DNA of 64,000 nucleotides. Origin: a bacterium. Lineage in GTDB: Bacteria > UBA8248 > JACPRG01 > G963555815. Below the pieces are notes generated by a model, which saw only the letters and a list, made by a program, of their open reading frames with translations, was not told the origin of the DNA and ran no database searches. The position numbers and the translations under genes are program-made. Below, in pieces: positions 6,274 through 59,878 of the stretch (position 1 is its first letter; every line of letters begins with the position of its first letter). Location: assembly GCA_965261595.1 (NCBI GenBank), contig CBDHDG010000002.1, forward strand, positions 289,550-353,549, in the 5' to 3' direction.

Positions 6274-6550
6274 GGATTGACATGCGGGGGAAAAAGGGGG
6301 AGGTGCGGCCTGATTTGAAAATTGTCAGCCGGAAGCCGGACCGGCCCCGGTTTTGTGGACGCCTCTTTCGTCTGTTACGGTGTCGGGTGTCCACGAGACC
6401 GGGTCAACCCCGGAATCGTCCGGATATGATTTGTTGCTTCCGGTTATCCGATGTATAAGGAGGATTCAGCCATTCGGCGGCGGTCGACGCGCAGAGGTCT
6501 CGGGTGCCGGACCCTTTTCATCGAGTACACAAGTTCAAGGGGTTTGTCTC

Positions 6551-7243
6551 GTGCGGAAGATCATCGATTTGAGCCTCATCGTGGAAGAAGGCATCCTGAT
6601 GCCGTTCCTCAAGGAAAGGGACGAGGCTTTCGTCCTGGACGTGGTGAAGACGCATGACTCCGGACCGGCGCACGGAACCGTTGTGGAGATGTACCTGCAT
6701 GTCGGCACGCATGTCGATGCCCCCCTCCACTTCGTCCGGGGCGGAGACACGATCGATCAGATCCCCTTGGACCGGCTCGTCGGCGACGCCCTCGCCCTCG
6801 ACCTGCTCCACAAGGAGGGGGTCGTGCCGATCGAAAAGGCGGACCTGGAGGAGGCGGTGGAGAAGCTTCGCCGGGAGGGGATGGAGCACAAGGCGGGGGA
6901 CATGGTCCTCATCTGCACGGGACATCATGAGCGGCACTGGGGGAGTCTGGATTACTGGAAGTTTTCGCCCTACGTGACCGAAGAGGCAGCCCAGTGGATC
7001 GTCGATCAGGGATTTTCCGCCGTGGGGTTCGATTTCATGCAGGACATCCCCCAGGAACAGCAGGACCCCAAAGCCCCGGGACCCATCCACCGCATCATCC
7101 TGGGGAACTCTCTCTACAATATTGAGTACATTACAGGTTTGGACCGGGTGGCGGGCAAGAAGATTTGGCTCTCGGCGGCGCCGGTTTTGTTCAAAGGGGT
7201 GGAGGGGGCGCCCGCGCGGGTGTACGCCGTCGTGGAGGAGTGA
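6551..7243 (+). CDS. Cyclase family protein (kynurenine formamidase-like metal hydrolase)
   Basis: HVGTHVDAPLHF motif (HxGTHxDxPxH) and C-terminal GAPARVYA; start GTG 6551. Confidence 0.9.
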   Translation: MRKIIDLSLIVEEGILMPFLKERDEAFVLDVVKTHDSGPAHGTVVEMYLHVGTHVDAPLHFVRGGDTIDQIPLDRLVGDALALDLLHKEGVVPIEKADLEEAVEKLRREGMEHKAGDMVLICTGHHERHWGSLDYWKFSPYVTEEAAQWIVDQGFSAVGFDFMQDIPQEQQDPKAPGPIHRIILGNSLYNIEYITGLDRVAGKKIWLSAAPVLFKGVEGAPARVYAVVEE

Positions 7244-7296
7244 TCCGGCGAACGGATGCGGGCGCCGACGGGGGCTGAGGTTTGGAGGATTCGCCC

Positions 7297-8679
7297 ATGT
7301 CGTTCGATGACCCAAGGGATTTTCTGGCGCGTCTGGAAGGGGAAGGGGACCTGATCCGGATCTCCGAGCCGGTGGACGCCCGCTTCGAGATCTCGGCGTA
7401 CATCCGGAAGACCTCGGACCAGCAGGGGCCGGCGCTCCTCTTCGAGCGGGTTAAGGGGCGCGACATCCCCGTCGTCGGGGGGATTTTCGCCGCGCGCCGC
7501 AGGGTGTTGCGGGCCCTGGGGTTCAAGTCCGAGGAGGCCGTCGAGCGATTCCGCCAAGCGGCCGACCATCCCATCGCCCCCGTCCTCGTCGACGAGGGTC
7601 CCTGCCAGGAGGTGGTTTACGAGGGGGACGCGGTCGACCTGACCCGGCTCCCCATCCCCACCTACAGTCCCCAGGACGGGGGGGCCTTCATCACCCACGG
7701 GATCGAGATCACCAAGGACCCGGAAACCGGGGAGAAGAACGCGGGCATCTACCGCATGCAGCTCCAGGGCCGGAACCGGCTCGGGATCTTCGCCAACGTC
7801 CAGCAACACTGTTACATCCACTACACCAAGGCGGAGAAGAAGGGAGAGGCCCTGGAGATCGCTGTGGCCCTCGGGGTGGACCCGGTCGTCATGCTGGGGA
7901 CGCAGGTGAAGGCCCCGTACGGAACGGACGAGCTGAGCGTCGCCGGAGGTCTCCGGGGGGAGGCGGTCCCGGTGGTGAAGTGCCGGACCGTGGACCTCGA
8001 AGTTCCGGCGATGAGCGAGATCGTGATCGAGGGCCGGATGCTGCCCGGCATCCGGGAGGCGGAAGGGCCCTTCGGCGAGTTCTCCGGCTACTACGGCCCC
8101 GGCGACCGGCGTCCGGTCATCGAGGTGAGCGCCGTCACCCACCGGCGCTCCCCCATCTTTCACGCGGGGCTGACGGGCGTCCCGATGACGGAGAACCACT
8201 TCCTGAAGCAGATCCCCAACGAGGTCACCGTTTTTCGGGACCTCAGCGCCAAGTTCCCCGAGGTCAAGGCGGTTCACTTTCCGGCGTCGGGATGCAGCGA
8301 GTACCACTGCTACGTCTCGATGACGCCGCGTTACAAGGGACAGCCCCGAAACGTCATCCTCGCCGCCCTGGGGAGCGCCAAGCGGCCGAAGCTGGTGGTT
8401 GTGGTGGACGAGGACATCGATATCTTCGATGACGTGAAGGTCCTCTGGGCGGTCGGCACCCGGATGCAGGCGGACCGGGACGTGATCATCGTGCCTGCCG
8501 CCGGCGGCGGCCCCCTCGACCCCTCGGCGCCCGAGCCGAACCTGTCGGCCATGATGGGGATCGACGCCACGCGCCCCTTCGGGGAGGAATTCCCGGATGT
8601 GCCGGAGGTCCCCGGCGTCGAGAACGTCCCCGACCTGCTGGCCCTGGCGCGTCTGCGGGGAACCGCGGCCGGCCCTTGA
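7297..8679 (+). CDS. UbiD-family prenylated-FMN-dependent (de)carboxylase
   Basis: NAGIYRMQ, EIVIEG, EGPFGEFSGYY, VVVDEDIDIFD, LDPS, GIDAT; GGAGGA RBS before ATG 7297. Confidence 0.93.
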   Translation: MSFDDPRDFLARLEGEGDLIRISEPVDARFEISAYIRKTSDQQGPALLFERVKGRDIPVVGGIFAARRRVLRALGFKSEEAVERFRQAADHPIAPVLVDEGPCQEVVYEGDAVDLTRLPIPTYSPQDGGAFITHGIEITKDPETGEKNAGIYRMQLQGRNRLGIFANVQQHCYIHYTKAEKKGEALEIAVALGVDPVVMLGTQVKAPYGTDELSVAGGLRGEAVPVVKCRTVDLEVPAMSEIVIEGRMLPGIREAEGPFGEFSGYYGPGDRRPVIEVSAVTHRRSPIFHAGLTGVPMTENHFLKQIPNEVTVFRDLSAKFPEVKAVHFPASGCSEYHCYVSMTPRYKGQPRNVILAALGSAKRPKLVVVVDEDIDIFDDVKVLWAVGTRMQADRDVIIVPAAGGGPLDPSAPEPNLSAMMGIDATRPFGEEFPDVPEVPGVENVPDLLALARLRGTAAGP

Positions 8680-8792
8680 GACTTGCGGGTCCGCGCGAAC
8701 GGCATTTCATCGACGCGGCCTGAAATCGCCCGCTCGAAATTACCCATTCGGGTCGGGCGGGTTGCCGAAAGCATGTGAACCGGAGGTGATCG

Positions 8793-11072
8793 ATGGACAG
8801 TCTGCGGGTGGTCGGCAAGCCGATCCCTCAGATCAACGCACCCGAGAAGGTCCACGGGTCGGCCCGGTACGTGGGAGACCTGGAATTTCCACGGATGCTC
8901 CACGCCAAGCTCCTGCGAAGCCCCCACGCCCACGCGCGAATCCTGAGCGTCCGGACGGACCGGGCCTTGAGCGTGCCCGGTGTGGCGGCCGTCGCCACCT
9001 CGGAGGACACGCCGAAAAATCTCTGGGGGCCGGTCAAGAGCGACCAACAGATCCTGGCTGTAGGGAAGGTCCGGCATTTGGGGGAGGAGATCGCGGCGGT
9101 CGCGGCGAGCGACGAGGCCGCCGCCCAAGATGCCGTTGAGCGGATCGAGGTCGAGTATGAGGTTCTGGCGCCGGTGTTCGACGCCGAGGCGGCCCTGGCC
9201 CCCGGCGCCTCGGAGGTCCACGAGGGGACGGGGAACATCGCCCGGGAGATCCGCATCCGCCACGGGGACGTCGATCAAGGCTTCCGGGAATCGGCGGTCA
9301 TCCACGAGGAGACCTATACGACGCCTCACCAGTTCCAGACTTACATGGAGCCCCTGGGCGCCTTGGCCGACATCGACGCTCAGGGGCGCATCACGCTCTA
9401 TGTCCCCACCCAATCGATTTATTTCACCCGGCGGCTCATCGCGGGTGCCCTGAACCTGCCCTCGACGAAGATCCGGGTGATCCAGACGCACGTGGGCGGG
9501 GCCTTCGGCGGGAAGCTCGGCGAGGACCCCATCGGCCACATCGCCGCGGTTCTCGCTCAAAAGACCGGCCGTCCGGTCCGCCTCCTCAACAACCGGCTGG
9601 ACGAGTTTCAGGGGTCGAGGCCCCGGATGCCCGCGGCCGTTCACCTCAAGATGGGGGTCCGGGACGACGGGACGATCGCCGCCAAGGAGAGCCGGATCGT
9701 CGGGAACAACGGCGCCTATTCCGGTTTCTCCTACGAGGTGATCCAGGTGACGGCCACCCGGATGGACAACCTGTACCGCCAACAGAACCTCAAGACCGAC
9801 GCCCTTCTCGTTTACACCAACCTGATCCCCGCGGGCGCGTTCCGGGGATTCGGCAATCCCCAGATGTCCTTCGCCATGGAGTCCCATATGGACGTTCTGG
9901 CCGAGAAGCTGGGGATGGACCCCGCGGAGATCCGCTTCCGGAATGTGGTCCATCAAGGGGACACGAGCATCCACGGCTGGGAGATGGGGAGCTGCGGCAT
10001 CGAGGAGTGCATCGAGAAAGCGACCGCGGCGGTCGGATGGAAAGCGGCGCGCGCGGCCTCCGGGAACGGCGCCGTCCGGACCGGGATCGGTCTCGGGTGC
10101 GCCGTTCATTCGACCTCCAGCCGGCAGCTTTCCAACTGGGACGGCTCGACGGCGGTGGTCAAGGTCGACGACGACGGCAAGGTCCAGGTCGTTTGCGGCG
10201 AGGGGGACCTGGGGCAGGGCGCCCAGACGGTCATCGCACAGATCGCCGCCGAAGGGCTGGGCCTCGAGGTCGAGGACATCCGGGTCTCCGCGGCCGACAC
10301 CGAGAACACGCCGCTCTGCTTCGGGGGCTACGGCAGCCGGCTGACGCTGATGGCGGGCAACGCCGTGCAAAAGGCGGCCGAGTCCTGCGCGGAAAAGCTG
10401 CTCCACATCGCCGCCGACGAGCTGGAAGTCTCGCCGGGAGACCTGTCCCTCGGGGAAGGGGCGATCTTCGTCACGGCCGCCCCGGACAGGAGGATGGGCC
10501 TGGGCGAGGCCGTCGCGGCGAACCTGCTTCGCGCAGGTGGAGATATCGTTTACAGCCAGGCCACCTGGGACGCGCCGACGGTGATGCCCAACGAGGAGAA
10601 CCACTACGGCCGGTCGACCGTCGCCTGCTCCTTCGCGTGCGTGATTGTCGAAGTGGAGGTGGACACCGAGACCGGCCAGATCCTTTTGAAGCGCATCGTG
10701 GCCGCCGACGACCTGGGCCGGGCGATCAATCCGCTGACCGTCGAGGGCCAGGTGCAGGGCGAGCTTGCGCAGGGGATGGGTTACGCGATGTTCGAGAACG
10801 CCGTTCTGGACGGCGGCGGGTTCGCGGGGGGCAACCTAGCCGACTACACCGTGCCGAACGCGGGCTCGCTTCCGGAGATGACCTCGATCTTCGTCGAGTC
10901 GCTCGATCCCAACGGTCCTTTCGGCGCCAAGGGATGCTCGGAGTGCGCCCTCGTCCCCTGCGGCGCCGCCCTGGCGAACGCCGTCTATGACGCGGTGGGC
11001 GTGCGGCTGACCGCCCTGCCGATCCGGCCTGAGACCGTCTTGAAGGCCCTGTCTGAGGTTTCTCCCGTGTGA
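8793..11072 (+). CDS. Xanthine dehydrogenase-family molybdopterin-binding large subunit
   Basis: RSPHAHARI, VGGAFGGK, AFRGFGNPQ, DLGQG, GQVQG, GPFGAKGCSE. Confidence 0.93.
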   Translation: MDSLRVVGKPIPQINAPEKVHGSARYVGDLEFPRMLHAKLLRSPHAHARILSVRTDRALSVPGVAAVATSEDTPKNLWGPVKSDQQILAVGKVRHLGEEIAAVAASDEAAAQDAVERIEVEYEVLAPVFDAEAALAPGASEVHEGTGNIAREIRIRHGDVDQGFRESAVIHEETYTTPHQFQTYMEPLGALADIDAQGRITLYVPTQSIYFTRRLIAGALNLPSTKIRVIQTHVGGAFGGKLGEDPIGHIAAVLAQKTGRPVRLLNNRLDEFQGSRPRMPAAVHLKMGVRDDGTIAAKESRIVGNNGAYSGFSYEVIQVTATRMDNLYRQQNLKTDALLVYTNLIPAGAFRGFGNPQMSFAMESHMDVLAEKLGMDPAEIRFRNVVHQGDTSIHGWEMGSCGIEECIEKATAAVGWKAARAASGNGAVRTGIGLGCAVHSTSSRQLSNWDGSTAVVKVDDDGKVQVVCGEGDLGQGAQTVIAQIAAEGLGLEVEDIRVSAADTENTPLCFGGYGSRLTLMAGNAVQKAAESCAEKLLHIAADELEVSPGDLSLGEGAIFVTAAPDRRMGLGEAVAANLLRAGGDIVYSQATWDAPTVMPNEENHYGRSTVACSFACVIVEVEVDTETGQILLKRIVAADDLGRAINPLTVEGQVQGELAQGMGYAMFENAVLDGGGFAGGNLADYTVPNAGSLPEMTSIFVESLDPNGPFGAKGCSECALVPCGAALANAVYDAVGVRLTALPIRPETVLKALSEVSPV

Positions 11073-11151
11073 TGTCCCGGGTGGATTCCGCCCAAGGCGG
11101 GAGAACGGTCGATCCCATCATCCACGGTGGTCAGACCGAAAGAGGGAGGAC

Positions 11152-11997
11152 GTGATGCGTCAAGTCAGTCCGCATGTCTATATCGATCCGGACGACGGGG
11201 GTTGCACAGTCGGGGCCATCCGGACGTCCGAGGGGGTGGTTCTGGTCGATTCTCCCCACAAACCGACACGGGCGCTGCGGTGGCGGGATGAAGTCGAAAC
11301 ACTGGGCGGGGTCCGCTACCTGATCAACACCGAGCACCACATCGACCACACCTTCGGCAACGCCTTTCTCCCCGGCGTCGTTCTCGTCCATCAAGGGGTC
11401 CGGGAGAAATTCTGGGAGGACAACATTCTCGGCGGAACCCCGTTGAAGGACCCGCGTCCGTACGTCGAGAAGTGCGATCCGCGGGCCATGGATTTGGCCG
11501 ACGAATATCAGGCCCGGGGACCGGAACTCTCTTTTGACGGCCGCCTGACGTTGTTCCTGGGGGACGTGACCATCGACCTCTTCGCGCTGCCCGGCCACAT
11601 CGCGGCGGAGACCGCCGTCTATGTCCGGGAAGACCGGACGCTTTTTACGAGCGACAATGTCTTTCATGACACGATGACTTGGTATCATGAGGCCCTCCCG
11701 TTCGAATGGCTTGAGTCGCTGGATTCGTTCAAGAAGATGGACGTTGAGGTGGTCGTGCCGGGGCACGGAATCGAAGCGGGCCCTGCGGTATTCGATGAGA
11801 TGAGGCAGGTTGTGGAAGACGCCATCCGGGAAGTGCGCTCGGCCATTCAGTCCGGGATAAGCCGGGAGGAGGCGGCCGAGAACATCACGTTCATCGACCG
11901 CCAGCCGGTTCCGGAAGAACATCGGCCGTACGCGCCCATGCTTCAGCGGATCTTTGTCGGGCGGATCTATGACGCGATTCAGGCGCGGGTCTCGTAA
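11152..11997 (+). CDS. MBL-fold metallo-hydrolase
   Basis: INTEHHIDHTFGN (ExHxDH variant), PGH, SD, VPGHG. Confidence 0.87.
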   Translation: MMRQVSPHVYIDPDDGGCTVGAIRTSEGVVLVDSPHKPTRALRWRDEVETLGGVRYLINTEHHIDHTFGNAFLPGVVLVHQGVREKFWEDNILGGTPLKDPRPYVEKCDPRAMDLADEYQARGPELSFDGRLTLFLGDVTIDLFALPGHIAAETAVYVREDRTLFTSDNVFHDTMTWYHEALPFEWLESLDSFKKMDVEVVVPGHGIEAGPAVFDEMRQVVEDAIREVRSAIQSGISREEAAENITFIDRQPVPEEHRPYAPMLQRIFVGRIYDAIQARVS

Positions 11998-12355
11998 CCC
12001 GAATTTCTCAAAGCGATTTCGCGGCGGAAATGTTCGTTGCCCGTAGCCGCGTCAATCGGATGTAGGCATGCCGCGCCCTTGCCGGGGCCGGCGGGCGCGT
12101 GAAAAATCCCCTCCTCCCTCTCCCCCCCCCCCCCCCAAACCCCCGAAAATCCCGGGTCACGGAATCCGGCGAGAACCGAACGGTCGCCTGAGAGGGCCAA
12201 GGATAGCTGAGATCCGCGCCGAAACAACGGAAACGGGAGTCGAAGCTCCTCGCCCTCATGGAAGTCCCGGACTGAGGTATACTGATTTCAGTTCAACCCG
12301 TGTCCCGGCGCTCGGTCCAAGAGACGGGACGGGATCGATGGAAAGGTCGGGATCC

Positions 12356-13717
12356 ATGGAACAACTCAAGGTCGTCCATTTCCTGAACCACTTCTTCGCC
12401 GGCGTCGGCGGCGAGGAGAAGACGGACGCGCCGGTCGAAGTCCGGCCGGGGGCCGTGGGACCCGGCGCGCCGCTGGAGGCCCATTGGGAGGGAAAAGCCC
12501 GGATCGTCGCGACGGTTTTTTGCGGCGATAACCACTTCCAGCGACACGCCGAGGAGGTCGCCGCGCGCGTGGCCGAGGTGGTTCGTGAAGAGGGGGCCGG
12601 GCTCCTGGTGGCCGGGCCGGCGTTCGACGCGGGCCGATACGGATTCGCCTGCGCGACGGTGTGCGCCCGGGCGGCGGATGCGGCCGGGGTGGCGGCGGTG
12701 ACCGGGATGTTCCCCGAAAACCCGGGGGTGGAGGTCTACCGCGCCCGGAAGCCCGAACGGATGTACGTCGTGCCGACGGCGAAGACGGTCCGGGGCATGG
12801 CCGAGGCCCTGTCGCGGATGGCCCGACTCGCCCTGCGCGCCGCCTCGGGAGAGCCGATCGGGTTCCCCGAGGAGGAGGGGGAGGCGTATCTGCCGCGGGG
12901 TGTGCGGGTTTCCGTCCTGACGGAGAAGACGGGCGCCCGCCGCGTCGTCGAGATGGTGGTCGCCAAGGTCCAGGGGCTCGAGGTCCGCACCGAGGTCCCG
13001 CTGGGGGCGTACCCGGTTGTCCCGCCCGCCCCGCCGCTGAAGCGCCTGGCCGGAAGCCGCATCGCCCTGGTGACCAGCAGCGGGGTCGTCCCGAAGGGCA
13101 ATCCCGACCGGTTCAAGACGCACGTGAACGATCGCTGGGCCAAATACCCCATCGACGGAATGGAACGCCTGGAAACCGGCGTTTGGGAGACGGTCCACGG
13201 CGGTTACAACACCGAGTTCATGACCCGGAATCCCCATTTCGGCGTCCCGCTGGACGCCCTGCGGGCGTTGGAGCGGGAGGGCGTGTTCGGCTCGCTCCTT
13301 CCCCACTATTATGTCGTTCCGGGAAACCAGGTGCAGGTCAGCGACGCCCACCGAATGGCCGCCGAGATGGCGAAAGAGATGCGGGAGGACGGGGTGGAGG
13401 GCGTGCTCCAGGTCGCCACGTGAGGAACGTGCACTCGATGCGGGTCATCGATGAGCAAGGAATTCGACAGGGCGCAAATTCCCGCGGTCCTGATCACGGC
13501 CATGGCCCCCATGGCGAAGATGTTGAGCGCGAACCGGATTGTCCTGGGTTTGGCGATCCCCTATCCGTGCGGCGATCCGAGCCTGCCGGAGGCGGAGGAT
13601 TTTCGCTTGCGCAAGGCCCTGGTCCATGACGCGCTGAAGGTCCTGGAGACCGAAGTCCAGGGACCCACGATCTTCGAGCCGGAGGTCCTGAAGACAATTT
13701 CTTCGATCACGTATTAG
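12356..13717 (+). CDS. grdB: Glycine/sarcosine/betaine reductase selenoprotein B-family subunit (Sec at TGA 13421-13423)
   Basis: ORFs 12068..13423 and 13451..13717 share a frame. Read-through gives LQVAT-U-GTCTRCG (UxxCxxC). Also NHFFAGVGGEEK, GPAFDAGRYG, HGGY and IPYPCGDP; 453 aa when joined. Confidence 0.9.
13424..13456 (+). promoter_or_regulatory. Bacterial SECIS-like hairpin immediately 3' of the UGA
   Basis: Stem TCGATG (13435-40)/CATCGA (13446-51) with G-containing loop CGGGT starting 18 nt after the UGA. Confidence 0.7.
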
Positions 13718-13760
13718 TCTCGTAGGTTTTTCATATCGAGACCCGAATAGTCCCTTTCGG

Positions 13761-13784
13761 GCCGGGCAAGATGCCCGGCCTACC
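13761..13784 (-). repeat. GTAG-type REP-like palindrome
   Basis: Reverse complement GGTAG-GCCGGGCATCTTGCCCGGC; one mismatch to the copy at 47047-47070. Confidence 0.7.
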
Positions 13785-14004
13785 GGACGGTGAAACCCGG
13801 TGTTTTCAAAACAGGTAGGGAGGGCGTTTGGGTCGGTTGACCCCTTGCCCGCCTTCTCTGCAATTTGTGAAGTGTCAATTTATTTTGGAGGCGCTACACT
13901 TAGGAAGCGGTCGGCCATGAGCTTTTAGCCGTCAGGCGCCCACAGGGGCCTTGCGGGGACGATGGACGGCCGCCGGTCCGGAAGGGGAAGGAGGAGACAG
14001 GGCG

Positions 14005-15303
14005 GTGAGGTTGGAGATGGGCGTGTTCCCGGTCCGGGAGATCGTCCTGGGCCGGAGCACCGGATATGCCGAAGGCAGGCTGACGGTGGATGTGGACGAA
14101 ATCACGCGGTTGGTCCGGGAGAGCCCGCAGATAACAGATGCGGCGTGCGAGGTGGTGGTCCCCGGGGAATCCGTGCGGGTGCCTTACGTCCTGGATGCCG
14201 TGGAGCCGCGCGTCAAGGTGAGCGGTCCGGGGTGCGTCTTCCCCGGCATCCTGGGCGGGGTGGAGACGGTGGGTTCGGGGCGCACCCACCGCCTGGACGG
14301 GATGGCCGTCGTGGCCTCGGGCGAGATCCCCCTTCCCACCCTGGGCACGGGGGCGAGCCGTGGGGCGTTTTTGGACATGGCGGCGCCGGGCAACCTCGGA
14401 CCCCTGAGCCATACCCTGAATCTCGTGCTCCTTTTAGAGTTCGCCCCCGGCCACGGGGAGCTGGACTACCACGCCGCCGTCCAGATGGCCGAGATGCGGG
14501 TCGGGCGTCATCTGGCGGAGGCCACGGCCGGCCTCACCCCCGCCGAGACGGCGACCTACGACATCGAAGAGGTGGACCCGGCGCTCCCCAAGGTCGTGCT
14601 CATCCAGGGGGTCGTCACCGTGGCCCACGAGCCCCACCCCTGGTACGCCTTCTACGGCCAGCCGATCCGCGCCGTCTTTCCGTTCTTTGTCCACCCCAAC
14701 GAGTTGCTGGACGGGGCCTTCACGGTCCGGGCCACGGGGATCTCGGGGCACTCGCCGTCCACCTGGGAGTGGGGGAACCACTCGGTGGTGGAGGAGCTTT
14801 ACCGGGCCCACGGGCGCGAGTTGAACTTCCTCGGCATCGTCGTGCACCGCATCGGGTTCGATACCCACGGGGCCAAGCAGATGGCGGCGAATCAGGCGGC
14901 CAAGCTGGCCCGGCGGCTCGGCGCCGACGGCGCCATCGTGGCCTGGCTCGCCGCCGGCAATGCCTTCATCGACACCATGCTGTCCGTTCAGGCCTGCGAG
15001 CGGGCGGGGATCCGTACGGTCCTTCTGACCTACGAGCAGCCGGGCGTCCGGGGGGTGGACCCGTCATTCATCTTCTCCGTGCCTGAAGCCGACGCCATCG
15101 TGAGCACCGGGAACAAGAACGTGGCCCTGTGCACGGCCCCCGTCGAGCGGGTGGCGGGGGGCCGAGAGACCCTGCACTGGGACTTCGCCGCCACCGCCCC
15201 CGAGGCGCCGGCCGGGGAGGCCATCCAGGTGGACGATCTCTTCCGGGTCCTGGGCGGCGTGGACACCTGGGGATGGGGCCGGGTCACGTGCCGGGAGCGT
15301 TGA
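14005..15303 (+). CDS. Glycine/sarcosine/betaine reductase component B proprotein family (GrdE/GrdG/GrdI-like)
   Basis: MRLEMG N-terminus, PGESVRV, DAVEPRVK, VGSGRTHRL, HPNELLDGA, ELYRAHGRELNFLG, EADAIVSTGN; start GTG 14005 after GGAGGAG. Confidence 0.85.
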   Translation: MRLEMGVFPVREIVLGRSTGYAEGRLTVDVDEITRLVRESPQITDAACEVVVPGESVRVPYVLDAVEPRVKVSGPGCVFPGILGGVETVGSGRTHRLDGMAVVASGEIPLPTLGTGASRGAFLDMAAPGNLGPLSHTLNLVLLLEFAPGHGELDYHAAVQMAEMRVGRHLAEATAGLTPAETATYDIEEVDPALPKVVLIQGVVTVAHEPHPWYAFYGQPIRAVFPFFVHPNELLDGAFTVRATGISGHSPSTWEWGNHSVVEELYRAHGRELNFLGIVVHRIGFDTHGAKQMAANQAAKLARRLGADGAIVAWLAAGNAFIDTMLSVQACERAGIRTVLLTYEQPGVRGVDPSFIFSVPEADAIVSTGNKNVALCTAPVERVAGGRETLHWDFAATAPEAPAGEAIQVDDLFRVLGGVDTWGWGRVTCRER

Positions 15304-15532
15304 TGCCTGGCCGGCATGCGAACCCTCGGCCGGAAGGGGGGAGGGGGGGGGGAGGGGAGAGGGGGGACGATTCGGACCTCGAACCGAAAAACCGTTCCCC
15401 CGAGCCGACGCCCGTTCTTTATCAGGTTGCGGAAAAACACCTGATCCGTGGACCGCCACAACGGATTTCCAGATCGCCCCGCTGTCGGATTTGTCTGACT
15501 GAGCCTGCCGGAGCAAGGCTCAAAATCCCGGA

Positions 15533-16024
15533 TCACAATCCCGTGGCATTCCAGTCCGATGCGGGCGCTTCGGGCGCGGGGGTGCACCCCGCGGTCTTGA
15601 CGCCGGTGATGGCGCAGTACTCATCCTTGTCCGAGGAGTCGCCGCTGATGCCGACCGCGCCCACCACATTGCCGGAGGCGTTACATATCAGAACGCCGCT
15701 GGGAACGGGGATGAAGCGGCCGGCGGACGCCGCCGCCAGCGCGCCCTGAAACGCCGGACGGTCCTTGAGGCGGTCTCTGATGGCGCGGCTGGGCATGCCC
15801 ATTCCCAGGGAGGCCCAGGCCTTGCCGACGGCGATGTCCACGCGCAGGATGCCCGATCCGTCCTCCCGCTTGAGGGCGATAAGGTTCCCCCCGGCGTCGA
15901 GCACCGCCACCGTCAGAGGCAAAAGCCCCGCTTCCCGTCCCGCCGCCAACGCGGCGTCGATGATGGAGGAGGCGGATTCCAGCGGGAGGCCCGTCTGAAT
16001 GTTCGTCAATTCACGCTCGGACAT
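15533..16024 (-). CDS. GlcG/HbpS-family heme-binding protein
   Basis: VAVLDAGGNLIALKREDG, AVGKAW, VGAVGISG, DEYCA. Confidence 0.88.
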   Translation of the reverse strand: MSERELTNIQTGLPLESASSIIDAALAAGREAGLLPLTVAVLDAGGNLIALKREDGSGILRVDIAVGKAWASLGMGMPSRAIRDRLKDRPAFQGALAAASAGRFIPVPSGVLICNASGNVVGAVGISGDSSDKDEYCAITGVKTAGCTPAPEAPASDWNATGL

Positions 16025-27257: not shown

Positions 27258-29653
27258 GTGGATTCCGGCCAACCGCCATGGTTTGGCGCCAGGATGGAAA
27301 GAAAAGAAGACCGCCGCTTCCTCACCGGCCGGGGCCGGTATGTCGATGACATCCCTTGCCCGGGCGTTTTGCATGCGGCGTTTTTGAGATCTCCCTACGC
27401 GCACGCCCGGATTGTCGACCTCGATCTCTCCGGCTGTCAGGCCGCGGGCGCCGTCGCCGCGTACAAGGCGGAAGACCTGGGCGCGCTCTGGCGGCCTTTC
27501 CCCACCCCGGTTTTCCATCCCGATTTGCGGGGGCGGAACTGGGTTCCCCTGGCCAAGGACAAAGTCAAATTCGTCGGAGAGCCGGTCGCCGTGGCCGTGG
27601 CCGAAACGCGGGCCGCCGCGGAAGACGCCCTGGACGCCGTTCAGGCGAAGTTTGAAGTTCTCCTCGCCGCAAGCCACCCTGTCCAGGCCCTCGAACCCGG
27701 GGCGCCGCTCGTCCATGACGAGCTCGGAGATAACCTGGCCGTTCACCTGGAGGCCAAGATAGGAGACGTGGAAAAGGCGTTGGCCGATTCTCCCCATGTC
27801 GAAAAACTTCAACTGAACATCCAGTGGGGCGGCGGCGGCTCGATGGAATGCCGTGGAGTCCTGGCGCAATATGATTCCCTTTATGACAAGCTTCTCCTTT
27901 ACTCCTCCACGCAGATTCCCCACTTTGTTCGCCAGAAGCTCTCCGTTCTTCTCCAACGGCCCGAAGAATCCATAGACGTGGTCGCCACGGACGTGGGAGG
28001 GGGGTTTGGACCCAAGGCGACGTTTTACCCGGAAGAATTCGTCGTCCCTTGGCTGGCGATCCGGTTGGAGCGTCCCGTCAAGTGGACCGAGGACCGGCTG
28101 GAATACATCCAAACCGGGGTTCAGGAGCGGGAGCAAAGGCACGATGTCACCGTAGGCTTCGACGGTGAAGGACGAATCCTGGCGTTGAAGGTCCAAGCTG
28201 TCGTGGACCTGGGAGCCTATCCGGCGTGGGGGATCGTCGTGCCCATTTTGACGTTGATGTCCATCCCCGGCCCCTACAAGATCAAGCACTTTTTGGGCGA
28301 GATGGACGTCTCGCTTACACCCACCGGGTCGCGGTTGCGCCTGTCAGGGGCGCGGGACGGCCCCAGGCGACCTTCGTCATCGAGCGCACCATGGATCATA
28401 TGGCCCGGAAGCTGGGTCTCGACCGGACGGAGGTGAGGTTCAGGAATTTTGTGCAGCCCGAGGATTTCCCCTATGTGGTCGGCCTTCCGACCCGCGAAGG
28501 CGTGATGACCTATGACAGCGGTGATTACCCGGAACTTCTCCGGCGCGTCCTGGCTCAGGCCGACTATGCGGCCCTGAAAAAAAGGAAAAACCATTCCGCA
28601 AAGGAGGAGGGGGAGGGGGAGGGGGAGGGCCGTTCGGGGAAACTCCTCGGAGTCGGAATCTCCTTCAACATCGAGGAGACGGGGGCGGGCCCTTTTGAAG
28701 GCGCCAGGATACGCGTTGAGCCGGACGGACGAGTCGTGGTTTCAACCGGGGCCTGCTCTCAAGGGCAGGGCCACGAGACCATCTTTTCACAGGTCGCGGC
28801 TGACGCCCTTGACGTTTCCCCGGAAGACATCACCATCGTGGAAGGAGACACCCGGCACATCTCCTACGGGATTGGAACGCTGGCGAGCCGGAGTTCGGTC
28901 ACGGTGTCCTCCGCCATTGTGCTGGCGGCCGGGGCGCTCCGGGAAAAGGCGATTGCGCTTGCCCGGGAATACTTCGAGGCCGGCGGGGAGGACCTGGACA
29001 TGAGGGAAGGGCGGGTTTTCGTCAAAGCGGCGCCGGATCGCTCGGTGACTTTGGGAGAGCTTGCCGCGTTCTCTTTGGGCGCTTCGCCGGGGATCATCCT
29101 CCCGCCGGGGATGAAACCCGGATTGGAGGCGGAAGAGTATTTTGCGCCCGAAAAGGCCGCTTACTCCGCCGGCGCGCACGTGGCAGTGGTCGAAGTCGAT
29201 CCCGAAACCGGTTTCGTCAAGGTCCTTCGGTATGTCGCGGGACATGACTGCGGGAAGATGATCAACCCCCTTTTGGTGGAGGGCCAGATACGCGGCGGCG
29301 TGGTCCACGGATTGGGAGACGTCCTCATCGAAGAAGTGGCGTTCGATGACAGCGGCCAGCCGTTGGCCTCCACCTTTTTGGATTATCTTCTCCCTCTTGC
29401 CTCGGACGTCCCCGCGATTGAAACCCTTTCCATGGAAACCCCCTGCCCCGATAACCTTGTCGGGGTCAAAGGGGCGGGGGAGAGCGGGACAATCGCCGCG
29501 GTGGCCGCCATCGTTTCAGCCGTCGAAGATGCCCTGGCGCCCCTGGGGATCGAGATTCGGGAATCTCCCGTCACGCCGGCGAGATTGAACGAGCTGATTC
29601 GGGGCAAGGAGAGAACCGAAGATGAAAAACGCCCTTCCGAACGGCAATGTTGA
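27258..29653 (+). pseudogene. CoxL-like/xanthine dehydrogenase-family Mo large subunit, frameshifted near 28310
   Basis: Frame 1 has RKEDRRFLTGRGRYVDD, RSPYAHA, VGGGFGPK...PGPYKI...EMDV. It continues in another frame as AYTHRVAVAPVRGAGRPQ, SQGQGHET, GVKGAGESG. The loop is not the form-I CODH AYRCSFR. May be a consensus error. Confidence 0.85.
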
Positions 29654-37089: not shown

Positions 37090-38532
37090 GAGGGTGTCCC
37101 GAATTCAGTTGAAGGTTTGAGGCGGCGGTCCGTGTGCGGTTCACCTTATGCGACCTCCTCTCGGGTGTCAAAGCGGGGCTCGTCCAGAACGGCCTTCAGG
37201 ATCCACAGGTCCCGGTAGCCGTCCAGGCGACGGAAGTTCTTCTCGGTGGCGAGGAAGGCGGAAGCGGCCCACCTTTTCACCATCGCCCCGTCCCGCCAGC
37301 GGCCGACGCGCCGGGTGCGCATCCGCACCCCCGAACAGGGACTCTCGATCAGGTTCGTGCTCACCAGGCAGCGCCGAAGGCCGGGCGGAAGAGCCAAGCG
37401 GTTGACGGTGAAGATCTCCTCCAGACCCTCCAAAAGGCTGGCGGCCGCGTCCGGATGCTCGATCTGAAGCCACCGGGCCTGCTTGCGCAGACGGGCAATC
37501 CCCTCCTTCGGCGCCAGCCGCCAGGCCGCCTTCATCGTCGCCTTCACCGGATCCTTCAACTCCTCGGGCAGGTGGTCCATCACGTTCTTCACCTTGTGGT
37601 TGCGGCACCGCTGCACCGGATTGTCGTCCCCGTACACCCGGTCAATCGCCGCACGAAGCGCCCTCGAGCCGTCGATGACGAAAAGCCGACGCCGCCCGGG
37701 CCGCACGCCGCGCTCCACCAACTCCTCAAGAAGCGCCGTCACGACCGTGGCGTTCTCGGTGGCGCCCGACCTCAGGCCCAGAACGTGCTTTTGGCCCCGT
37801 GTGTCCACCCCAACGGCCACGATGACGTGATGCGCGCCGAAGCGCAGACCGTCCAGGTAGAGGATGAGGAGGTCGATGTCGTCAAAACGCCGCTCACAAA
37901 GACGCCGCAGCTTCGCCTCGGCCGCCTCGATGCTCTCCCGGCTCACGGCCGACTTCGACACCCCCACCGTCTCGGCCAGCTCGGGAAGAACGGCCGCGTA
38001 GTTCCGCGTCGAGACCCCTCGCATCAGCAAATCCAGCATCCGCTCCCCCAGCCCAGGGTCGGCCTGCATGGCCGCATACGCCGGCACCTCCACCTCCCCG
38101 CCCCGACCCTGGCCCCGGCGGCGAAGCCGCGGCTTTCTCACCTTCAGCTTGCGCCCCTTCAGGGTCACCCGGCCCCCCTGGCTGCCGTGCCGGCGGACCT
38201 CGCCACCCCGCTTGCCTGGATGCGGCGCGCCCGTCAAGCCCTTGGCCGACAGCAAAAGCACGGCCTCCAGGCCCGCCCGGCCCATGACGTCCATCAGGTC
38301 CTCCACCGCCAGTTGGGACTGCTCCACCAGCGACACCAGAGGAAAAAACGCCTGCCCGTGCTCCGCCACAAAGGCGGCCAACCTTTGGGTCTCTTTCTTC
38401 TCGATGATCTGGTAAGCTTCACTCATGGCGGTTCCTCCTCTTTGAATGTTTGCCAACCCGATTCTAACCGAGTCGGCAGGAGTGAACCGCCACCTCTTTT
38501 TCTCAACCTTCAACTATGAATGGGACAGGCTC
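37090..38532 (-). mobile_element. IS256-family insertion sequence (1443 bp)
   Basis: Imperfect IRs GAGGGTGTCCCGAATTCAGTTGAAGGTT / GAGCCTGTCCCATTCATAGTTGAAGGTT; 8-bp TSD TCATTATG at 37082-37089 and 38533-38540. Confidence 0.95.
37146..38426 (-). CDS. IS256-family DDE transposase
   Basis: GVSTR, LYLDG, FVIDG, QRCRNH, STNLIES; GAGGAGGA RBS before ATG 38426. Confidence 0.95.
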   Translation of the reverse strand: MSEAYQIIEKKETQRLAAFVAEHGQAFFPLVSLVEQSQLAVEDLMDVMGRAGLEAVLLLSAKGLTGAPHPGKRGGEVRRHGSQGGRVTLKGRKLKVRKPRLRRRGQGRGGEVEVPAYAAMQADPGLGERMLDLLMRGVSTRNYAAVLPELAETVGVSKSAVSRESIEAAEAKLRRLCERRFDDIDLLILYLDGLRFGAHHVIVAVGVDTRGQKHVLGLRSGATENATVVTALLEELVERGVRPGRRRLFVIDGSRALRAAIDRVYGDDNPVQRCRNHKVKNVMDHLPEELKDPVKATMKAAWRLAPKEGIARLRKQARWLQIEHPDAAASLLEGLEEIFTVNRLALPPGLRRCLVSTNLIESPCSGVRMRTRRVGRWRDGAMVKRWAASAFLATEKNFRRLDGYRDLWILKAVLDEPRFDTREEVA

Positions 38533-48443: not shown

Positions 48444-49316
48444 TCAGCGATTGAGGAATTGCTTCCAGTTTCTCCGCAGCGGCCGCAGCCAGATGTCCTT
48501 CTTCGGCTTGTCGTAGCGTTTGTGCCTGTCGTAGCGCCCACGTCCCTGGGTGGTTCCGACATGGATCCAGCCCGATGCCCTGTAGACGGCGCCAGTGTAT
48601 CGCGGTGTCTGGACGAAGGTCTCGATGAGCACGGGGGTGGTGTTGTAGCGCTCGGTCCAGTCCTCGGGCAGGCGCCGGCGGACGATGGCGAGGATGTGCG
48701 AGCCCAGGTTGGGGATCTTGATCCAGGGCAGGATGAGGAACCTCGGGTTGTCGACCACGAGGGAGAGGTTCTTCTCGCGCAGCTGCGGCGTCCATCCGAT
48801 GAAGCGGTCGCGCGGCGCGAGCTTCCACGCGGCGGTGCTGAAGCCGAGCATGGCGATGGGCCAACCGCTGCGGTCGTGGACGGCGTAGCGCATCTGTGCG
48901 CCGACCAGGGTTTTGTAGCCGAGATAGTGGTAGCGGGCGACGAACTCGTTCCACAGCCTGCCCTCGGGGGTGTCGCGCACGACGGTCCGCAGGTCGAGCG
49001 GGCGGACCTCCTCGAGGGTGGCCGGCGCCGGGATCAGCGGCCCTTCGGTGTCCGGTCCGAAGACGATCGGCCGGGCCCGGGGCCGTGGCCGCTTCGGCGG
49101 CGGGAGGGCGATCAGACCATCGTTGTGCATGGCCAGCATGGTAACCCGGGCCATCATGTCCTTGAGCCCGCCGTCGGGCTTGAGCCAGCCGATGCGCCGG
49201 CAGAACTCCTTCGACAGCGCATGGCGGTTCAGCGGCGGAGAGGCGGCGATCAGCGCGCGCAGCAGCCTCATCTCTTGCGTCGTGAAGTCACGGCCGTAAT
49301 AGCGGCACTCGGTCAT
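48444..49316 (-). CDS. DUF4338-domain protein (DruA-like domain) inside the IS66-like element
   Basis: LWNEFVARYHYLGY, GAQMRY, RDRFIGW, NPRFLILPW..IPNLGSHIL, LIETFV, GAVYRASGW..VGTTQGRGR; ATG overlaps the transposase stop (ATGA 49316-49313). Confidence 0.85.
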   Translation of the reverse strand: MTECRYYGRDFTTQEMRLLRALIAASPPLNRHALSKEFCRRIGWLKPDGGLKDMMARVTMLAMHNDGLIALPPPKRPRPRARPIVFGPDTEGPLIPAPATLEEVRPLDLRTVVRDTPEGRLWNEFVARYHYLGYKTLVGAQMRYAVHDRSGWPIAMLGFSTAAWKLAPRDRFIGWTPQLREKNLSLVVDNPRFLILPWIKIPNLGSHILAIVRRRLPEDWTERYNTTPVLIETFVQTPRYTGAVYRASGWIHVGTTQGRGRYDRHKRYDKPKKDIWLRPLRRNWKQFLNR

Positions 49317-51509
49317 GCCGCTCTTCCCGGCGCCATGAGGGCGCGCCTGCGTTCCCCGCTCATCGACCACGGCAGCCACGGCGAGAGGTCGTCCGGCGCC
49401 CGGCCGCCATTGTCCGCGCAGGCTCCCAGCCATGTCTCCAGCCAGCGGAGAAGGTCGATGCCGTTCGACGCGAGGGTGCCGAGGACCGAGTACATCATCG
49501 CCGTGAACCGGGCGCCGGTCTCGCTCACGGAGCCGAACGACAGCCGTCTCCCGATCACGGGTCCTCTCAGCGCGCGCTCGGCCGCGTTGTTGTCCACCGC
49601 ACCCGGGGCCGCTCGACGAAGACGGTCAAGCCCTCGCGATGGTTCAGCAGCGAGCGCAGCGCCTTGCCCTCGCGCGCCGCCCTCGGCAGGGCGGCCAGTT
49701 CCCGTCCGGCTTCCACGAACAGTCCGTCGAGCGCCTCTTCCAGCGCGGCCTGCGCCGTGGAGAACGCCGCGCTCTGCCGGTCGCGGCCGGGGTCGTAATG
49801 GACCAGACGCGCCTCGTTCAGCCGGTAGATCGCGGCGATCCGCTCGATCCATCTCCGGCACCACTGCGTTAGCCCTGCCTGGCCGGCGGCGCAGTGAATG
49901 AAGTCGCGGCGTTGATGCGCCCAGCACCAACACAGAATCACTGCACCACCGAGTTCGCGCGCCATTTTCTTGTAGGCGCTGTAGCGGTCGCAGACGATGA
50001 CCGTATGGTAGACGGCCGCGCCGAACAGCGTCTTCGCGACCTCCGCGCTGCGCGAGGGGTCGACGTGGAAGTAGACCGCGTCCTCGCTGACCGAGGTCCA
50101 CAGCCAAGCCCGGCTCGAGCGGCCCTCCTCGCGAAGCGACTGGACGCCCCAGGCGGTCTCGTCGCCGTGCCGCACCGCCGCCTCGTTCTGGCGCGCGAGG
50201 ATCGCCTCGGCCATCGGCTCGAACAGCGGTGCGAACCGGCGCGCGCTGCCGGCCAGCGTCCCTGGCGAGATCGGAAGCCCCTGGTCCGACAGCCAGGCGG
50301 CGACCCGGTTGAGCGGGCGGAAGCAGGCGTAGCGCTCGAACAGGAAGCGCGACCACACGCTGGTCCCGCAGGGCGTGCCTGCGAACAGGCGCGGCGCCGG
50401 GGGCGCCGACACTTCCATGAGCGAGGACGCGCAGTTGCATCTCCGGTGCCACCGGGGACGGACGATCCTGCGCCTATGGGCAGCGACCACGATCTCGACG
50501 AGGGTCGAGACACGGGCCCCGTTCACCACGTAGGGCTTCCCGCAACCGGCGCAAATGAGCATATCGGCCGGCGGGTTGCGTTCTTCCGTCCTCTCCTCGA
50601 GCGCGGGCCGCAGGGTGCGGCCATGACCGGCGGCGCCGGGATGCCGGCCGCGCCGGCGCTCCGAGCGCAGCCTCTCCTGCCGTTCGCTCCTGCGCCCGAA
50701 CAGCGCCTTCGACAGCACCGCCCCGGTCGCGCGAAGCTTCGCCAGCTGGACCTCCAGACCCGCTTGCCGGCTCGCCGACTTCCGCACCGCCTTGCGCAGC
50801 CGGGCGTTCTCTTTGGACTGGGACTTGATCGTGTTCTTCTGGCGCCGCGATCTCCTCAAGGCCTTGCGCAGTTCAGCGGCCTCGGACGTCTCCAGGACAA
50901 CTCGTAGCCGGTAGACCTCCTCGGACAGACACCGAACCGCGTCCGCCTGGTCGCGCAATCGCCTCAACTCGAATGGAGCCGAATGACCTCGCGGCCCTGC
51001 GACCCGATGGTCTCCTTGTGGGTCTCCGACGCCTGCGCCTCCCGGGCCAGCCGATCCTCCAGCCGGACGACCTGCCTGTCCCGCCGGCTGATCTCCTTGC
51101 GCAGCCGGGCGACCTTCCCTGACGGCGACGCACCCGCGCGGTCCCTGGCCGATTCGACGCCGGCTTCCGAAAGAAGCTTCTCCAGCCGCGCCACTTCCGC
51201 CTGTAAGGAAAGGGCGTCCTGCGCCGCGCGGCGGACTTCCTTCGTCTCCTCCACGGCCGCCTTCAGCTTGCTCCGGCAGGCGTCGAGCTGCCACTTCAGC
51301 GAACCCGCCCGGGCACGGGAATCCACATCGGCCCAGCCCAACTCTTCGCAGCGCGCCTCCGCCGCCTCCGCCCGCGCCCGCTCGAGATCGAACAGCGAAC
51401 GCCAGTCCGGTGCCCCGCATGAGGGCGTCTCAGCGCGAAGAGACCATGAGACATCCGGTTCCACGGCAAGGGAGAGGTCAGCCTGAACGGCGTCTGCGCG
51501 GTTCGTCAT
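49313..51509 (-). pseudogene. IS66 transposase (TnpC-like) with a long N-terminal coiled coil; two frameshifts
   Basis: LFGRRSE, CAGCG...CNC zinc finger, HGDET, WLW, CDRYSAY, CWAHQRR, DNNAAERALR. Frame changes near 50970-50975 and 49595-49602. Confidence 0.85.
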
Positions 51510-51619
51510 GCCCGCAAAAATACCACAAGTCGCGCCGTGTTACCAGCCCCTTGTCAGAACCTCGCCCGAAGTCCATGACGAACAAGCTGGACGTCATCAC
51601 CCCACGACTGAATGCTTAC

Positions 51620-51732
51620 GTCTCAAGAAAACGCAACACCGGTTCAACAGAGGTCTTGTCCTTGTCTCCATACCAAATTCCCTCCAGGCAGAATATGCCT
51701 TTCTTTTGATCTGCCCTTCTCCGCTTCACCAT
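51620..51732 (-). pseudogene. 5' fragment of a DUF6642-like gene cut by the IS66 end
   Basis: MVKRRRADQKKGIFCLEGIWYGDKDKTSVEPVLRFLE resembles, from memory, the IFCLExxW...SVxPxL N-terminus of DUF6642; the frame runs straight into the IR. Confidence 0.55.
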
Positions 51733-51889
51733 TACATCACTCTCCATCGTCGCGGGTAGAATTCCTGGACCATACGCCAATGTTACCGTCAGCCTTGCCA
51801 AGTAAACACACCCGGACGCAGCGGTGATCGTTCCCCATCAATCCCTTGTAACGGCGAACTGTCTTCGCAACCTTGTGGCCGTTCATCCC

Positions 51890-52633: not shown

Positions 52634-52720
52634 CCTTTTCCTTCCACCTGCCGTCTCCCCGGTTTTTTGCCGCACCCCCGCGCATTCCACCGCTGGTGTG
52701 CTCAGGAATGTCAATCAACT

Positions 52721-52752
52721 ATAGGTTATACACTATTGATACCTATTATCAA
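52721..52752. promoter_or_regulatory. Candidate operators in the divergent CI/Cro intergenic region
   Basis: AT-rich patch with a 17-bp palindrome TTGATA-CCTAT-TATCAA (52736-52752) and ATAGGT-N14-ACCTAT (52721-52746). Confidence 0.5.
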
Positions 52753-52769
52753 GCGGGAACCTTCCCCTT

Positions 52770-53872: not shown

Positions 53873-53884
53873 GGGGGGCGGACG

Positions 53885-54178: not shown

Positions 54179-54188
54179 GGGGGCCTGG

Positions 54189-59845: not shown

Positions 59846-59878
59846 CGGCCTCCATAGCTTAAACAGAAGGAGACGCAC

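Follow-up and report, generated by a model that had tools for sequence, protein, structure and literature searches.

A GrdB/GrdE-like gene pair from a deep, uncharacterized branch of the Grd family with a predicted non-pyruvoyl protein B

Reductases of the Grd and Prd types have few established or proposed substrates, among them glycine, sarcosine, betaine, and D-proline. In glycine reductases of the Eubacterium acidaminophilum/Clostridium sticklandii type, protein B is made of the selenoprotein GrdB and the proprotein GrdE, and in E. acidaminophilum GrdD (component C alpha) carries the thiol that forms acetyl phosphate. D-Proline reductase (PrdA/PrdB) belongs to the same superfamily and likewise performs a selenocysteine (Sec)-dependent reductive C-N cleavage, with PrdA as a pyruvoyl proprotein and a system that does without GrdA and GrdC. 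Here, we analyzed a GrdB/GrdE-like gene pair that lies in a 64,000-nucleotide stretch of bacterial DNA (on contig CBDHDG010000002.1 of assembly GCA_965261595.1, called contig C2 below; the whole stretch is referred to as the window), and that, judged from its sequence, forms part of a deep, uncharacterized branch of the Grd family.

Modules for other substrates are already in print, in the form of the fluoroacetate reductase FarB/FarE from Cloacibacillus porcorum MFA1. PMC10838667 reports (i) that GrdI of betaine reductase (GrdH plus GrdI) and FarE are not proproteins and carry no pyruvoyl group, (ii) that fluoroacetate is a further Grd-type substrate, and (iii) that one GrdA/GrdC set can serve several B complexes. 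Because FarB/FarE acts on fluoroacetate, the Grd family can use nonamine leaving groups. Two other reports are close to our subject. Two B components in the genome of a dichloromethane fermenter (DCMF) are left unassigned in PMC6778437, and a preprint (10.64898/2026.02.13.705874) describes two Grd-family genes, finHI, in a riboflavin-induced neighborhood of a lumichrome-making Clostridium scindens, along with a variant neighborhood lacking finHI in a strain that makes hydroxyethylflavin. Neither paper gives these proteins a substrate; that finHI may cleave a carboxymethyl group from a flavin nitrogen is our reading and not that of the preprint. The finHI genes resemble our pair in their heterocycle context, and both they and the DCMF components were compared with it by description rather than by sequence.

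Both proteins of the pair (Table 1) fall into the Grd families in general, and into none of the substrate-specific groups. The GrdB-like protein scored 389.9 bits against the Pfam family GRDB (PF07355; cut-off, 22) and 449.5 bits against the NCBIfam model for the GrdB/GrdF/GrdH/PrdB selenoprotein B (TIGR01918; cut-off, 65.45), but it stayed under every substrate-specific cut-off, namely those of GrdB (412.2 against 602.2; TIGR01917), GrdF (451 against 800; NF040794), GrdH (385.8 against 775; NF040795), and PrdB (80.5 against 300; TIGR04483). Its partner matched the Pfam family Gly_reductase (PF09338) with 277.2 bits and was weak against the specific models for GrdG (206.4 against 780; NF040793), FarE (114.4 against 675; NF053623), and PrdA (16.3 against 700; TIGR04480). 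The start of the GrdE-like protein is most likely GTG 14005 (MRLEMGVFPV), and not 13951 or 14017, as picked by alignment with homologs of 432 residues that begin with M[KR]LE. A sequence search of the PDB returned no match for the GrdB-like subunit and no relative of the GrdE-like subunit (best E of the profile, 0.91).

Table 1. Features of the gene pair and its surroundings, in window coordinates
Feature	Position	Strand	Details	Basis
Cyclase-like gene	6353-7243	+		Pfam/NCBIfam
UbiD-family decarboxylase gene	7282-8679	+		TIGR00148, 419.8 bits
Xanthine-dehydrogenase-family Mo subunit gene	8793-11072	+		Pfam/NCBIfam
MBL-fold protein gene	11152-11997	+		Pfam/NCBIfam
C-rich inverted-repeat arm	12108-12143			Repeat search
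GrdB-family selenoprotein B-like gene	12356-13717	+	453 aa, Sec at residue 356	Translation with TGA read as U
In-frame TGA read as selenocysteine	13421-13423	+	U356, motif AT-U-GTCTRCG, UxxCxxC kept	
SECIS-like hairpin (Sec insertion sequence)	13435-13451	+	6-bp stem TCGATG/CATCGA, loop CGGGT, starts 14 nt after first TGA base	
Dispersed repeat between the two genes	13725-13900		Many copies at 80-95% identity on contigs C2, C5, C6, and C7	blastn
GrdE/GrdG/GrdI-family protein B partner gene	14005-15303	+	432 aa from GTG 14005; predicted non-proprotein	
Ala-Thr codons in the Asn-Cys alignment columns	14731-14736	+		Alignment with reference GrdE from G001-G003
G-rich inverted-repeat arm	15336-15367			Repeat search

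To place the pair, we built trees of both subunits. In an IQ-TREE phylogeny of 36 E subunits, two groups separated, each with a Shimodaira-Hasegawa-like approximate likelihood-ratio support of 99: the first holds the proteins labeled GrdE and GrdI, other forms with an Asn-Cys site, and the two other paralogs of the genome itself, and the second holds the GrdE-like protein of the window. We define clade II as the descendants of the most recent common ancestor of the window protein and a Bacillota form (L103) on a FastTree phylogeny of 106 rows, which left out open reading frames (ORFs) shorter than 380 residues and in which 3 rows duplicate others; clade II comprises 91 of these rows. The B subunits gave a matching picture in a tree of 61 rows, where the window protein falls into a 36-row environmental group (support, 98), whereas GrdB, GrdH, and the two other B proteins of the genome lie in a 13-row group (support, 100). 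The two trees disagree on one Acidobacteriota group, whose position in the B tree has weak support (12). The labeled betaine reductase subunits GrdH and GrdI (L111 and L099) sit in the other group of their respective trees, and clustering with betaine reductase, which an initial annotation made from the letters of the window had named as evidence against a new-substrate enzyme, was not seen.

Clade II is broad. It occurs in Binatia, Acidobacteriota, Chloroflexota, and some Bacillota, and it includes proteins whose source names are Dehalobacterium formicoaceticum, Desulfosporosinus orientis, Dehalobacter sp. DCM, and a Lachnospiraceae bacterium, all of these Bacillota proteins being without Asn-Cys. 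A protein search with the window sequence found 8 full-length relatives at 73-99% identity, followed by a large set at no more than 49%, with source names of Binatia/'Deltaproteobacteria', Pyrinomonadaceae, Zixibacteria, and soil metagenomes. Among the candidates scored, 1818 proteins match a clade II query (L103, from a Bacillota metagenome-assembled genome [MAG]) at E ≤ 1e-20, a list that also holds proteins of the glycine reductase type. Related loci were sought with an eight-row alignment in a genome collection, in which 171 stretches were confirmed and 75 loci kept; the locus counts given below rest on these 75. The branch has multiplied within single genomes and is located in catabolic gene islands, and since both gene orders occur within clade II, B before E does not define it. 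The literature that we searched contained no paper characterizing clade II.

A feature that sets the GrdE-like subunit apart is its lack of the site at which glycine reductase proproteins form their pyruvoyl group. References were fetched from three genomes reached via distant matches (G001-G003), which together yielded 12 matches to PF09338 and 13 to TIGR01918; among those to TIGR01918, 11 are full length (420-697 bits), with one TGA each. Three of the GrdB-type proteins pass the TIGR01917 cut-off and one passes that of GrdH (812.6 against 775), and the neighboring subunits were labeled GrdE and GrdI for this reason. The reference GrdE proteins read DGAI[IV]SGNCVSACDKN, which is the motif cited in the initial annotation, and the labeled GrdI reads DGAIISGSFMPCSS, with SGSFMPCSS at the site. 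By contrast, the window protein, which includes HPNELLDGAFTVRATGISGHSPSTWEW, reads DGAFTVRATGISGHSPSTW in the region of the cleavage site, where Ala-Thr takes the place of Asn-Cys in the alignment and the second Cys column is likewise without a Cys. The lack of the pyruvoyl-forming Cys that the initial annotation had noticed is thus real and a trait of the whole clade: none of the 91 clade II rows has a Cys in either Cys column, whereas among the 15 rows outside the clade Asn-Cys occurs in 6 and His-Cys in 1. Moreover, no Ser or Cys column is conserved at 90% or more within clade II. With neither Asn-Cys nor a conserved clade Ser or Cys, the GrdE-like subunit is probably unprocessed and without pyruvoyl.

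Five further positions are conserved in clade II, namely R91, W249, R277, F316, and A325 (numbered from 14020), where the references have V/I, Y/F, N/V/T, D/E, and K/R/N, respectively. With two additional arginines and an aromatic side chain where the references are acidic, the ligand might be a different one, perhaps more anionic or aromatic, although this is speculation.

Serine is the usual precursor residue in other pyruvoyl enzymes. The two other GrdE-like paralogs of the genome (L009:9246-10508 on contig C4 and L010:9938-11206 on contig C5) also lack Asn-Cys, and none of the three B modules of the genome therefore matches the glycine reductase references. Shifted by one residue from the register of the references, Phe-Cys (GFCRP) is seen in the C4 copy and Phe-Ser (GFSRP) in the C5 copy; a position that alternates between Cys and Ser would be compatible with cleavage and pyruvoyl formation there.

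The GrdB-like gene retains the features expected of a selenoprotein of this family. Translation through the TGA gives the active-site stretch QVAT-U-GTCTRCG, which bears out the earlier reading of AT-U instead of ST-U; the two other GrdB paralogs of the genome have SS-U and ST-U. All 53 GrdB-like ORFs that adjoin clade II-related E genes stop at a TGA in the same position and then continue in frame, for 86-111 residues in 51 of them and with frame problems in 2. The residues before Sec are AT-U in 33, ST-U in 13, and others in 7 of these ORFs, and the full UxxCxxC is present in 12, the window protein included, with the first Cys alone in 33. A consensus hairpin downstream of the TGA, computed with RNAalifold from 22 homologous segments, has six pairs, three of which show changes on both sides that preserve pairing (in 4, 8, and 7 sequences), and the same hairpin appears in the per-sequence folds of most of 47 distinct segments. 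Part of this conservation could be protein driven, because the region is coding, but the amino acids vary among the hairpin-bearing sequences while base pairing persists. When the 76 nt around the TGA were folded alone, no structure better than those of shuffled sequences was found (z = 0.56). The genome contains a tRNA-Sec and a SelB (389.9 bits; cut-off, 242.25), and Sec insertion at U356 is predicted from the position of the TGA, the hairpin, SelB, and tRNA-Sec.

Both genes are under purifying selection. Against the orthologous locus L021, which has 96% protein identity and an identical TGA and hairpin, the ratio of nonsynonymous to synonymous substitution rates (dN/dS) is 0.17 for the GrdB-like gene, computed on a protein-guided alignment that accommodates a 2-codon indel, and 0.16 for the GrdE-like gene. 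Contigs from four metatranscriptomic runs match stretches of both genes with 95-100% identity; one of these contigs (X19; 13366-13555) crosses the Sec codon with no differing letter listed there; these contigs are a weak hint of expression, since DNA can occur in such libraries. None of them bridges the spacer between the two genes, and several bins are without cover. A promoter and terminator scan of 11900-15600 gave nothing above shuffled sequences, and Rfam at the gathering threshold gave no match in the whole window, so that no riboswitch was seen.

The window pair was described initially as an orphan, and in the window this holds: none of the 57 ORFs scanned with Pfam belongs to the GrdA, GrdC, GrdD, thioredoxin (Trx), or thioredoxin reductase (TrxB) families, and family searches of the whole genome (6.17 Mb; 96.7% complete) placed no grdA, grdC, grdD, Trx, or TrxB on the window's stretch of contig C2. 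Elsewhere, however, the genome does hold most of the missing parts. It has three B/E pairs, on contigs C2 (the window), C4, and C5, and directly after the C4 pair follow, side by side, a single grdA (C4:333934-334374; PF04723, 174.5 bits; one TGA, with the CxxU motif ECFVU) and a single grdC, which encodes component C beta (NF040746, 532.9 bits against 450). TrxB (368.7 bits against 343.45) and Trx (107.4 bits) are encoded on contig C7, where neither adjoins a grd locus. As for a complete grdACD set elsewhere, which the initial annotation had named among the grounds for refuting its reading, the genome search found grdA and grdC, and no grdD.

The relatives also speak against an orphan system. 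In a tblastn search of the 75 related loci, grdC and grdA were each found in 15, immediately next to clade II pairs and in orders such as B-E-grdC (L037), grdC-grdA-B-E (L029, L031, and L036), and E-grdC-grdA (L066), and in two loci a thioredoxin gene stands beside grdC. Since the window protein branches between clade II members that lie beside grdC and grdA, dependence of the window pair on GrdA and GrdC is the most economical explanation, and we infer that the pair feeds the common GrdA/GrdC of its genome.

Six of the related loci (L052, L060, L063, L064, L072, and L075; Binatia/'Deltaproteobacteria' MAGs) carry an array with three E-like paralogs for one B, in the order UbiD, NMT1-like, E, SBP_bac_8-like, E, B, E, grdC, grdA. 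The binding-protein homologs are interleaved with the E and B genes, no permease gene was called inside the array, and these homologs might act as enzyme subunits instead of in transport. E-like genes without an adjacent B were seen in L056, L059, L062, L065, L067, L069, L073, L074, and L082, near genes for a radical-SAM/SPASM protein, an O-methyltransferase, an S51-family peptidase, acetate kinase, and a CBS protein.

We consider it reasonably probable that the pair encodes the two subunits of a substrate-specific, non-pyruvoyl protein B of the Grd type that serves the common GrdA and GrdC. By homology with the described systems, the GrdB-like/GrdE-like heteromer would bind an alpha-substituted acetate, X-CH2-COO−, and the selenolate of Sec356 would attack the alpha carbon and expel X, leaving a Se-carboxymethyl intermediate; in an enzyme without pyruvoyl, X must therefore leave without Schiff-base activation. 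The carboxymethyl group would then be handed to the Sec of the single GrdA, GrdC would help to turn it into an acetyl derivative and then acetate, and oxidized GrdA would be re-reduced by the housekeeping thioredoxin system encoded on contig C7. The substrate is very likely a compound other than glycine, sarcosine, or betaine, and, judged from the neighboring genes, it most plausibly arises in the catabolism of N-heterocycles, hydantoins, or amides.

Set beside the described systems, such a protein B would share with glycine reductase the two Pfam families, the Sec position, UxxCxxC, the adjacency of two genes, and the expected hand-over to GrdA and GrdC, whereas it differs in lacking Asn-Cys, in AT-U for ST-U, in its score on the GrdB model, and in its separate deep clade. 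With betaine reductase it shares a partner subunit without Asn-Cys, but its GrdH score is low, the labeled GrdH and GrdI group with GrdB and GrdE, and GrdI keeps Asp and Tyr where clade II has Phe316 and Trp249. The quaternary or onium substrate put forward in the initial annotation is a guess, and the residues conserved in clade II depart from those of the GrdI reference at the compared positions. FarB/FarE, which was compared by the FarE profile score and by its published description, outside the trees, is a protein B variant that acts on a nonamine substrate, and it resembles the pair in having an E subunit without both Cys (PMC10838667). On the FarE model, however, the window protein scores below the 189-210 bits reached by reference GrdE-type proteins, and FarB is reported in the same source to lack the CxxC after Sec that the window protein keeps.

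Several observations weigh against this reading. The coupling to GrdA and GrdC is drawn from other genomes, because in this genome the pair and the genes grdA and grdC are on separate contigs. In addition, no GrdD was found in the genome, where the best match reached 27 bits (PlsX-like) against a cut-off of 350. GrdD passed its cut-off in none of the 21 genomes of the class (the genome itself and 20 relatives), although grdC passed in 14 of them, and tblastn with GrdD from G003 found it in none of the 75 related loci; in the three genomes with glycine-reductase-type grd genes (G001-G003), which served as a positive control, it scored 523-566 bits each time. With grdD absent, the downstream chemistry would not be that of the textbook, provided that the role of GrdD given at the outset is right. 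Acetyl phosphate may still form somehow, given that four loci have an acetate kinase gene in the vicinity of E-like genes. Two protein clusters (c7 and c9) considered as GrdD substitutes were rejected, as they have no Pfam match, lie antisense to the GrdB gene, and are antisense-ORF artifacts. Finally, 51 of the 91 clade II rows, the window protein included, have a Thr at the position equivalent to the Cys, in a loop where the alignment is uncertain, and processing of the GrdE-like chain at this Thr is possible, without support from conservation.

The pair might instead work alone, as an enzyme resembling D-proline reductase in which Sec356 attacks the substrate and a Cys of UxxCxxC resolves the Se-C adduct, with no part for GrdA or GrdC and no acetyl derivative, which we regard as unlikely. 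The absence of grdA and grdC from the window, and of grdC or grdA from the DNA examined in 60 of the 75 related loci, would be explained in this way, as would the retention of both Cys of UxxCxxC, and ring-opening neighbors (hydantoinase-like proteins and amidohydrolases) would suit a cyclic substrate. However, many of the 75 loci are short contigs, which makes such absences weak evidence, and the scores of the two window proteins on the PrdB and PrdA models are far under the cut-offs. Moreover, a single grdA/grdC set with three B/E pairs corresponds to the multisubstrate layout published in PMC10838667, and the clade II members that bracket the window protein adjoin grdC and grdA.

Somewhat less likely still is an enzyme that remains of the glycine or sarcosine type, with the GrdE-like chain processed at Thr239 (numbered from 14020) to give a 2-oxobutyryl group or an N-terminal nucleophile, or with a carbonyl installed elsewhere. 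To our knowledge, a Thr-derived keto cofactor has no precedent, which counts against this alternative. That Thr is frequent in the Cys-equivalent column speaks for it, the top NCBIfam matches are GrdF and GrdG, and the hydantoinase-like and N-carbamoyl-amidase-like neighbors could free glycine or sarcosine from hydantoins. Nevertheless, Thr is not conserved throughout the clade, with Arg taking its place in 20 of the 91 rows, none of the Ser or Cys columns is 90% conserved, and an acidic residue of the references is replaced by Phe316. The Ser of ST-U has been proposed as a possible source of a formylglycine carbonyl (PMC10838667), but it is Ala in the window protein and in 33 of the 53 partner GrdB-like ORFs. 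Lastly, a decaying or silent paralog without present function, which the distance from grdA and grdC, the dispersed repeat between the genes, the odd C-rich and G-rich flanking tracts, and the transposases and conjugation genes further along the window might suggest, is highly improbable given that both frames are intact, that dN/dS is low with an identical TGA and hairpin in L021, that UxxCxxC and the clade-invariant residues are kept, and that, as a weaker point, fragments of both genes occur in RNA-library contigs.

Clues to the substrate of the proposed non-pyruvoyl protein B come from the gene neighborhood. The four genes at 6353-11997, upstream of the pair, may be coexpressed with it, and their order is identical in L021. 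Further neighbors in the window encode a hydantoinase/dihydropyrimidinase-like protein (353.5 against 393; TIGR02033), a C-N hydrolase, an amidohydrolase-family protein, an F420-type luciferase-like oxidoreductase, an isochorismatase-family protein, a RidA-like protein, and a BMP-type ABC transporter. Taken at the level of families (amidohydrolase/hydantoinase-like, C-N hydrolase, UbiD, xanthine dehydrogenase, cyclase, isochorismatase, and RidA), these neighbors fit catabolism of N-heterocycles or amides and agree with the heterocycle-catabolic setting that had been recognized initially. The C5 paralog has a similar setting, with a hydantoinase-like gene, two genes for xanthine-dehydrogenase-family subunits, and UbiD.

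In the related loci, the commonest neighbors are NMT1/SsuA-like binding proteins (31 of 75), SBP_bac_8-like proteins (28), UbiD (17), and luciferase-like oxidoreductases (15); Rieske oxygenases, amidases, hydantoinase A/B, and flavin reductases also occur around them, and genes of the xanthine dehydrogenase family adjoin the pair in L033, L070, and L076. These neighbors support a catabolic role tied to heterocycles, amides, or possibly sulfonates. Contexts that include oxygenases differ from classical Stickland fermentation, and the earlier suggestion that the pair may act outside that fermentation fits a clade found in Binatia, Acidobacteriota, and Chloroflexota near genes for Rieske oxygenases and luciferase-like monooxygenases.

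The DNA around the pair has peculiarities of its own. The dispersed repeat between the two genes is about 130-175 nt long, and the L021 ortholog locus contains nothing that matches this part of the spacer; the spacer measures 287 nt because the repeat was inserted. Within the repeat, 30 nt (13725-13754) form the complement of 15364-15393, which lies just past the grdE-like stop codon. The two inverted-repeat arms, with 29-32 nt that are 84-86% complementary, lie about 3.19 kb apart and bracket exactly the two-gene module. Their motif has five matches in the window, against 0.23 expected, and four of these are inside the two arms, whereas the L021 locus, with syntenic flanking genes, has no corresponding C- or G-rich stretches. 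The arms might belong to an invertible segment, pair over a long range in RNA, or be hypermutable tracts. The RNA-library contigs break at the G tract.

Further from the pair, a large subunit of the xanthine dehydrogenase/CO dehydrogenase family at 27258-29653 is present as two overlapping ORFs (27258-28436 and 28226-29653) that jointly cover one profile, which could reflect a frameshift, a pseudogene, or a sequencing error. Signs of a mobile element at 37146-38513 and 48444-63228 comprise genes for transposases of the Mutator and IS66 families, a DruA-like protein, and an S24 peptidase/repressor-like protein, together with an F-type conjugation set (TraE, TraK, TrbI/TraB-like, TraC, TraW, and TraU). 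In the genome itself, a fourth, weak GRDB-family match (C5:687222-687620; L011:7130-7633) of 33-34 bits to the C-terminal third of the profile corresponds to a 167-residue ORF that adjoins genes for an MBL-fold protein and a LigB-type dioxygenase and may encode a short, Sec-free relative of GrdB.

The clade, its breadth, its absent cofactor site, and its setting without GrdD are undescribed in the literature that we searched, and the catabolic gene islands that hold it belong to phyla not known for Stickland fermentation. Tentatively, and as a possibility to which we give clearly less weight than to the non-pyruvoyl protein B itself, clade II may represent a second kind of Grd system, GrdD-less and pyruvoyl-independent, in aerobic and facultative bacteria of soil, groundwater, and the sea (Binatia, Acidobacteriota, and Chloroflexota), whose many paralogous B modules would reductively remove carboxymethyl groups bound to heteroatoms in intermediates of ring degradation, such as N-carboxymethyl heterocycles or ureido, guanidino, or sulfonio acetates, with the window pair serving the adjacent pathway of UbiD, Mo-hydroxylase, and hydantoinase-like enzymes. 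If this were true, catabolism of N-heterocycles would be linked to acetate formation outside Stickland fermentation. The presence of the clade in Bacillota with the source names Desulfosporosinus orientis, Dehalobacterium formicoaceticum, and Dehalobacter sp. DCM offers testable entry points. Should members of the clade indeed use new substrates without GrdD, this would widen the known chemistry of selenocysteine enzymes and correct a widespread annotation as 'glycine/sarcosine/betaine reductase'.

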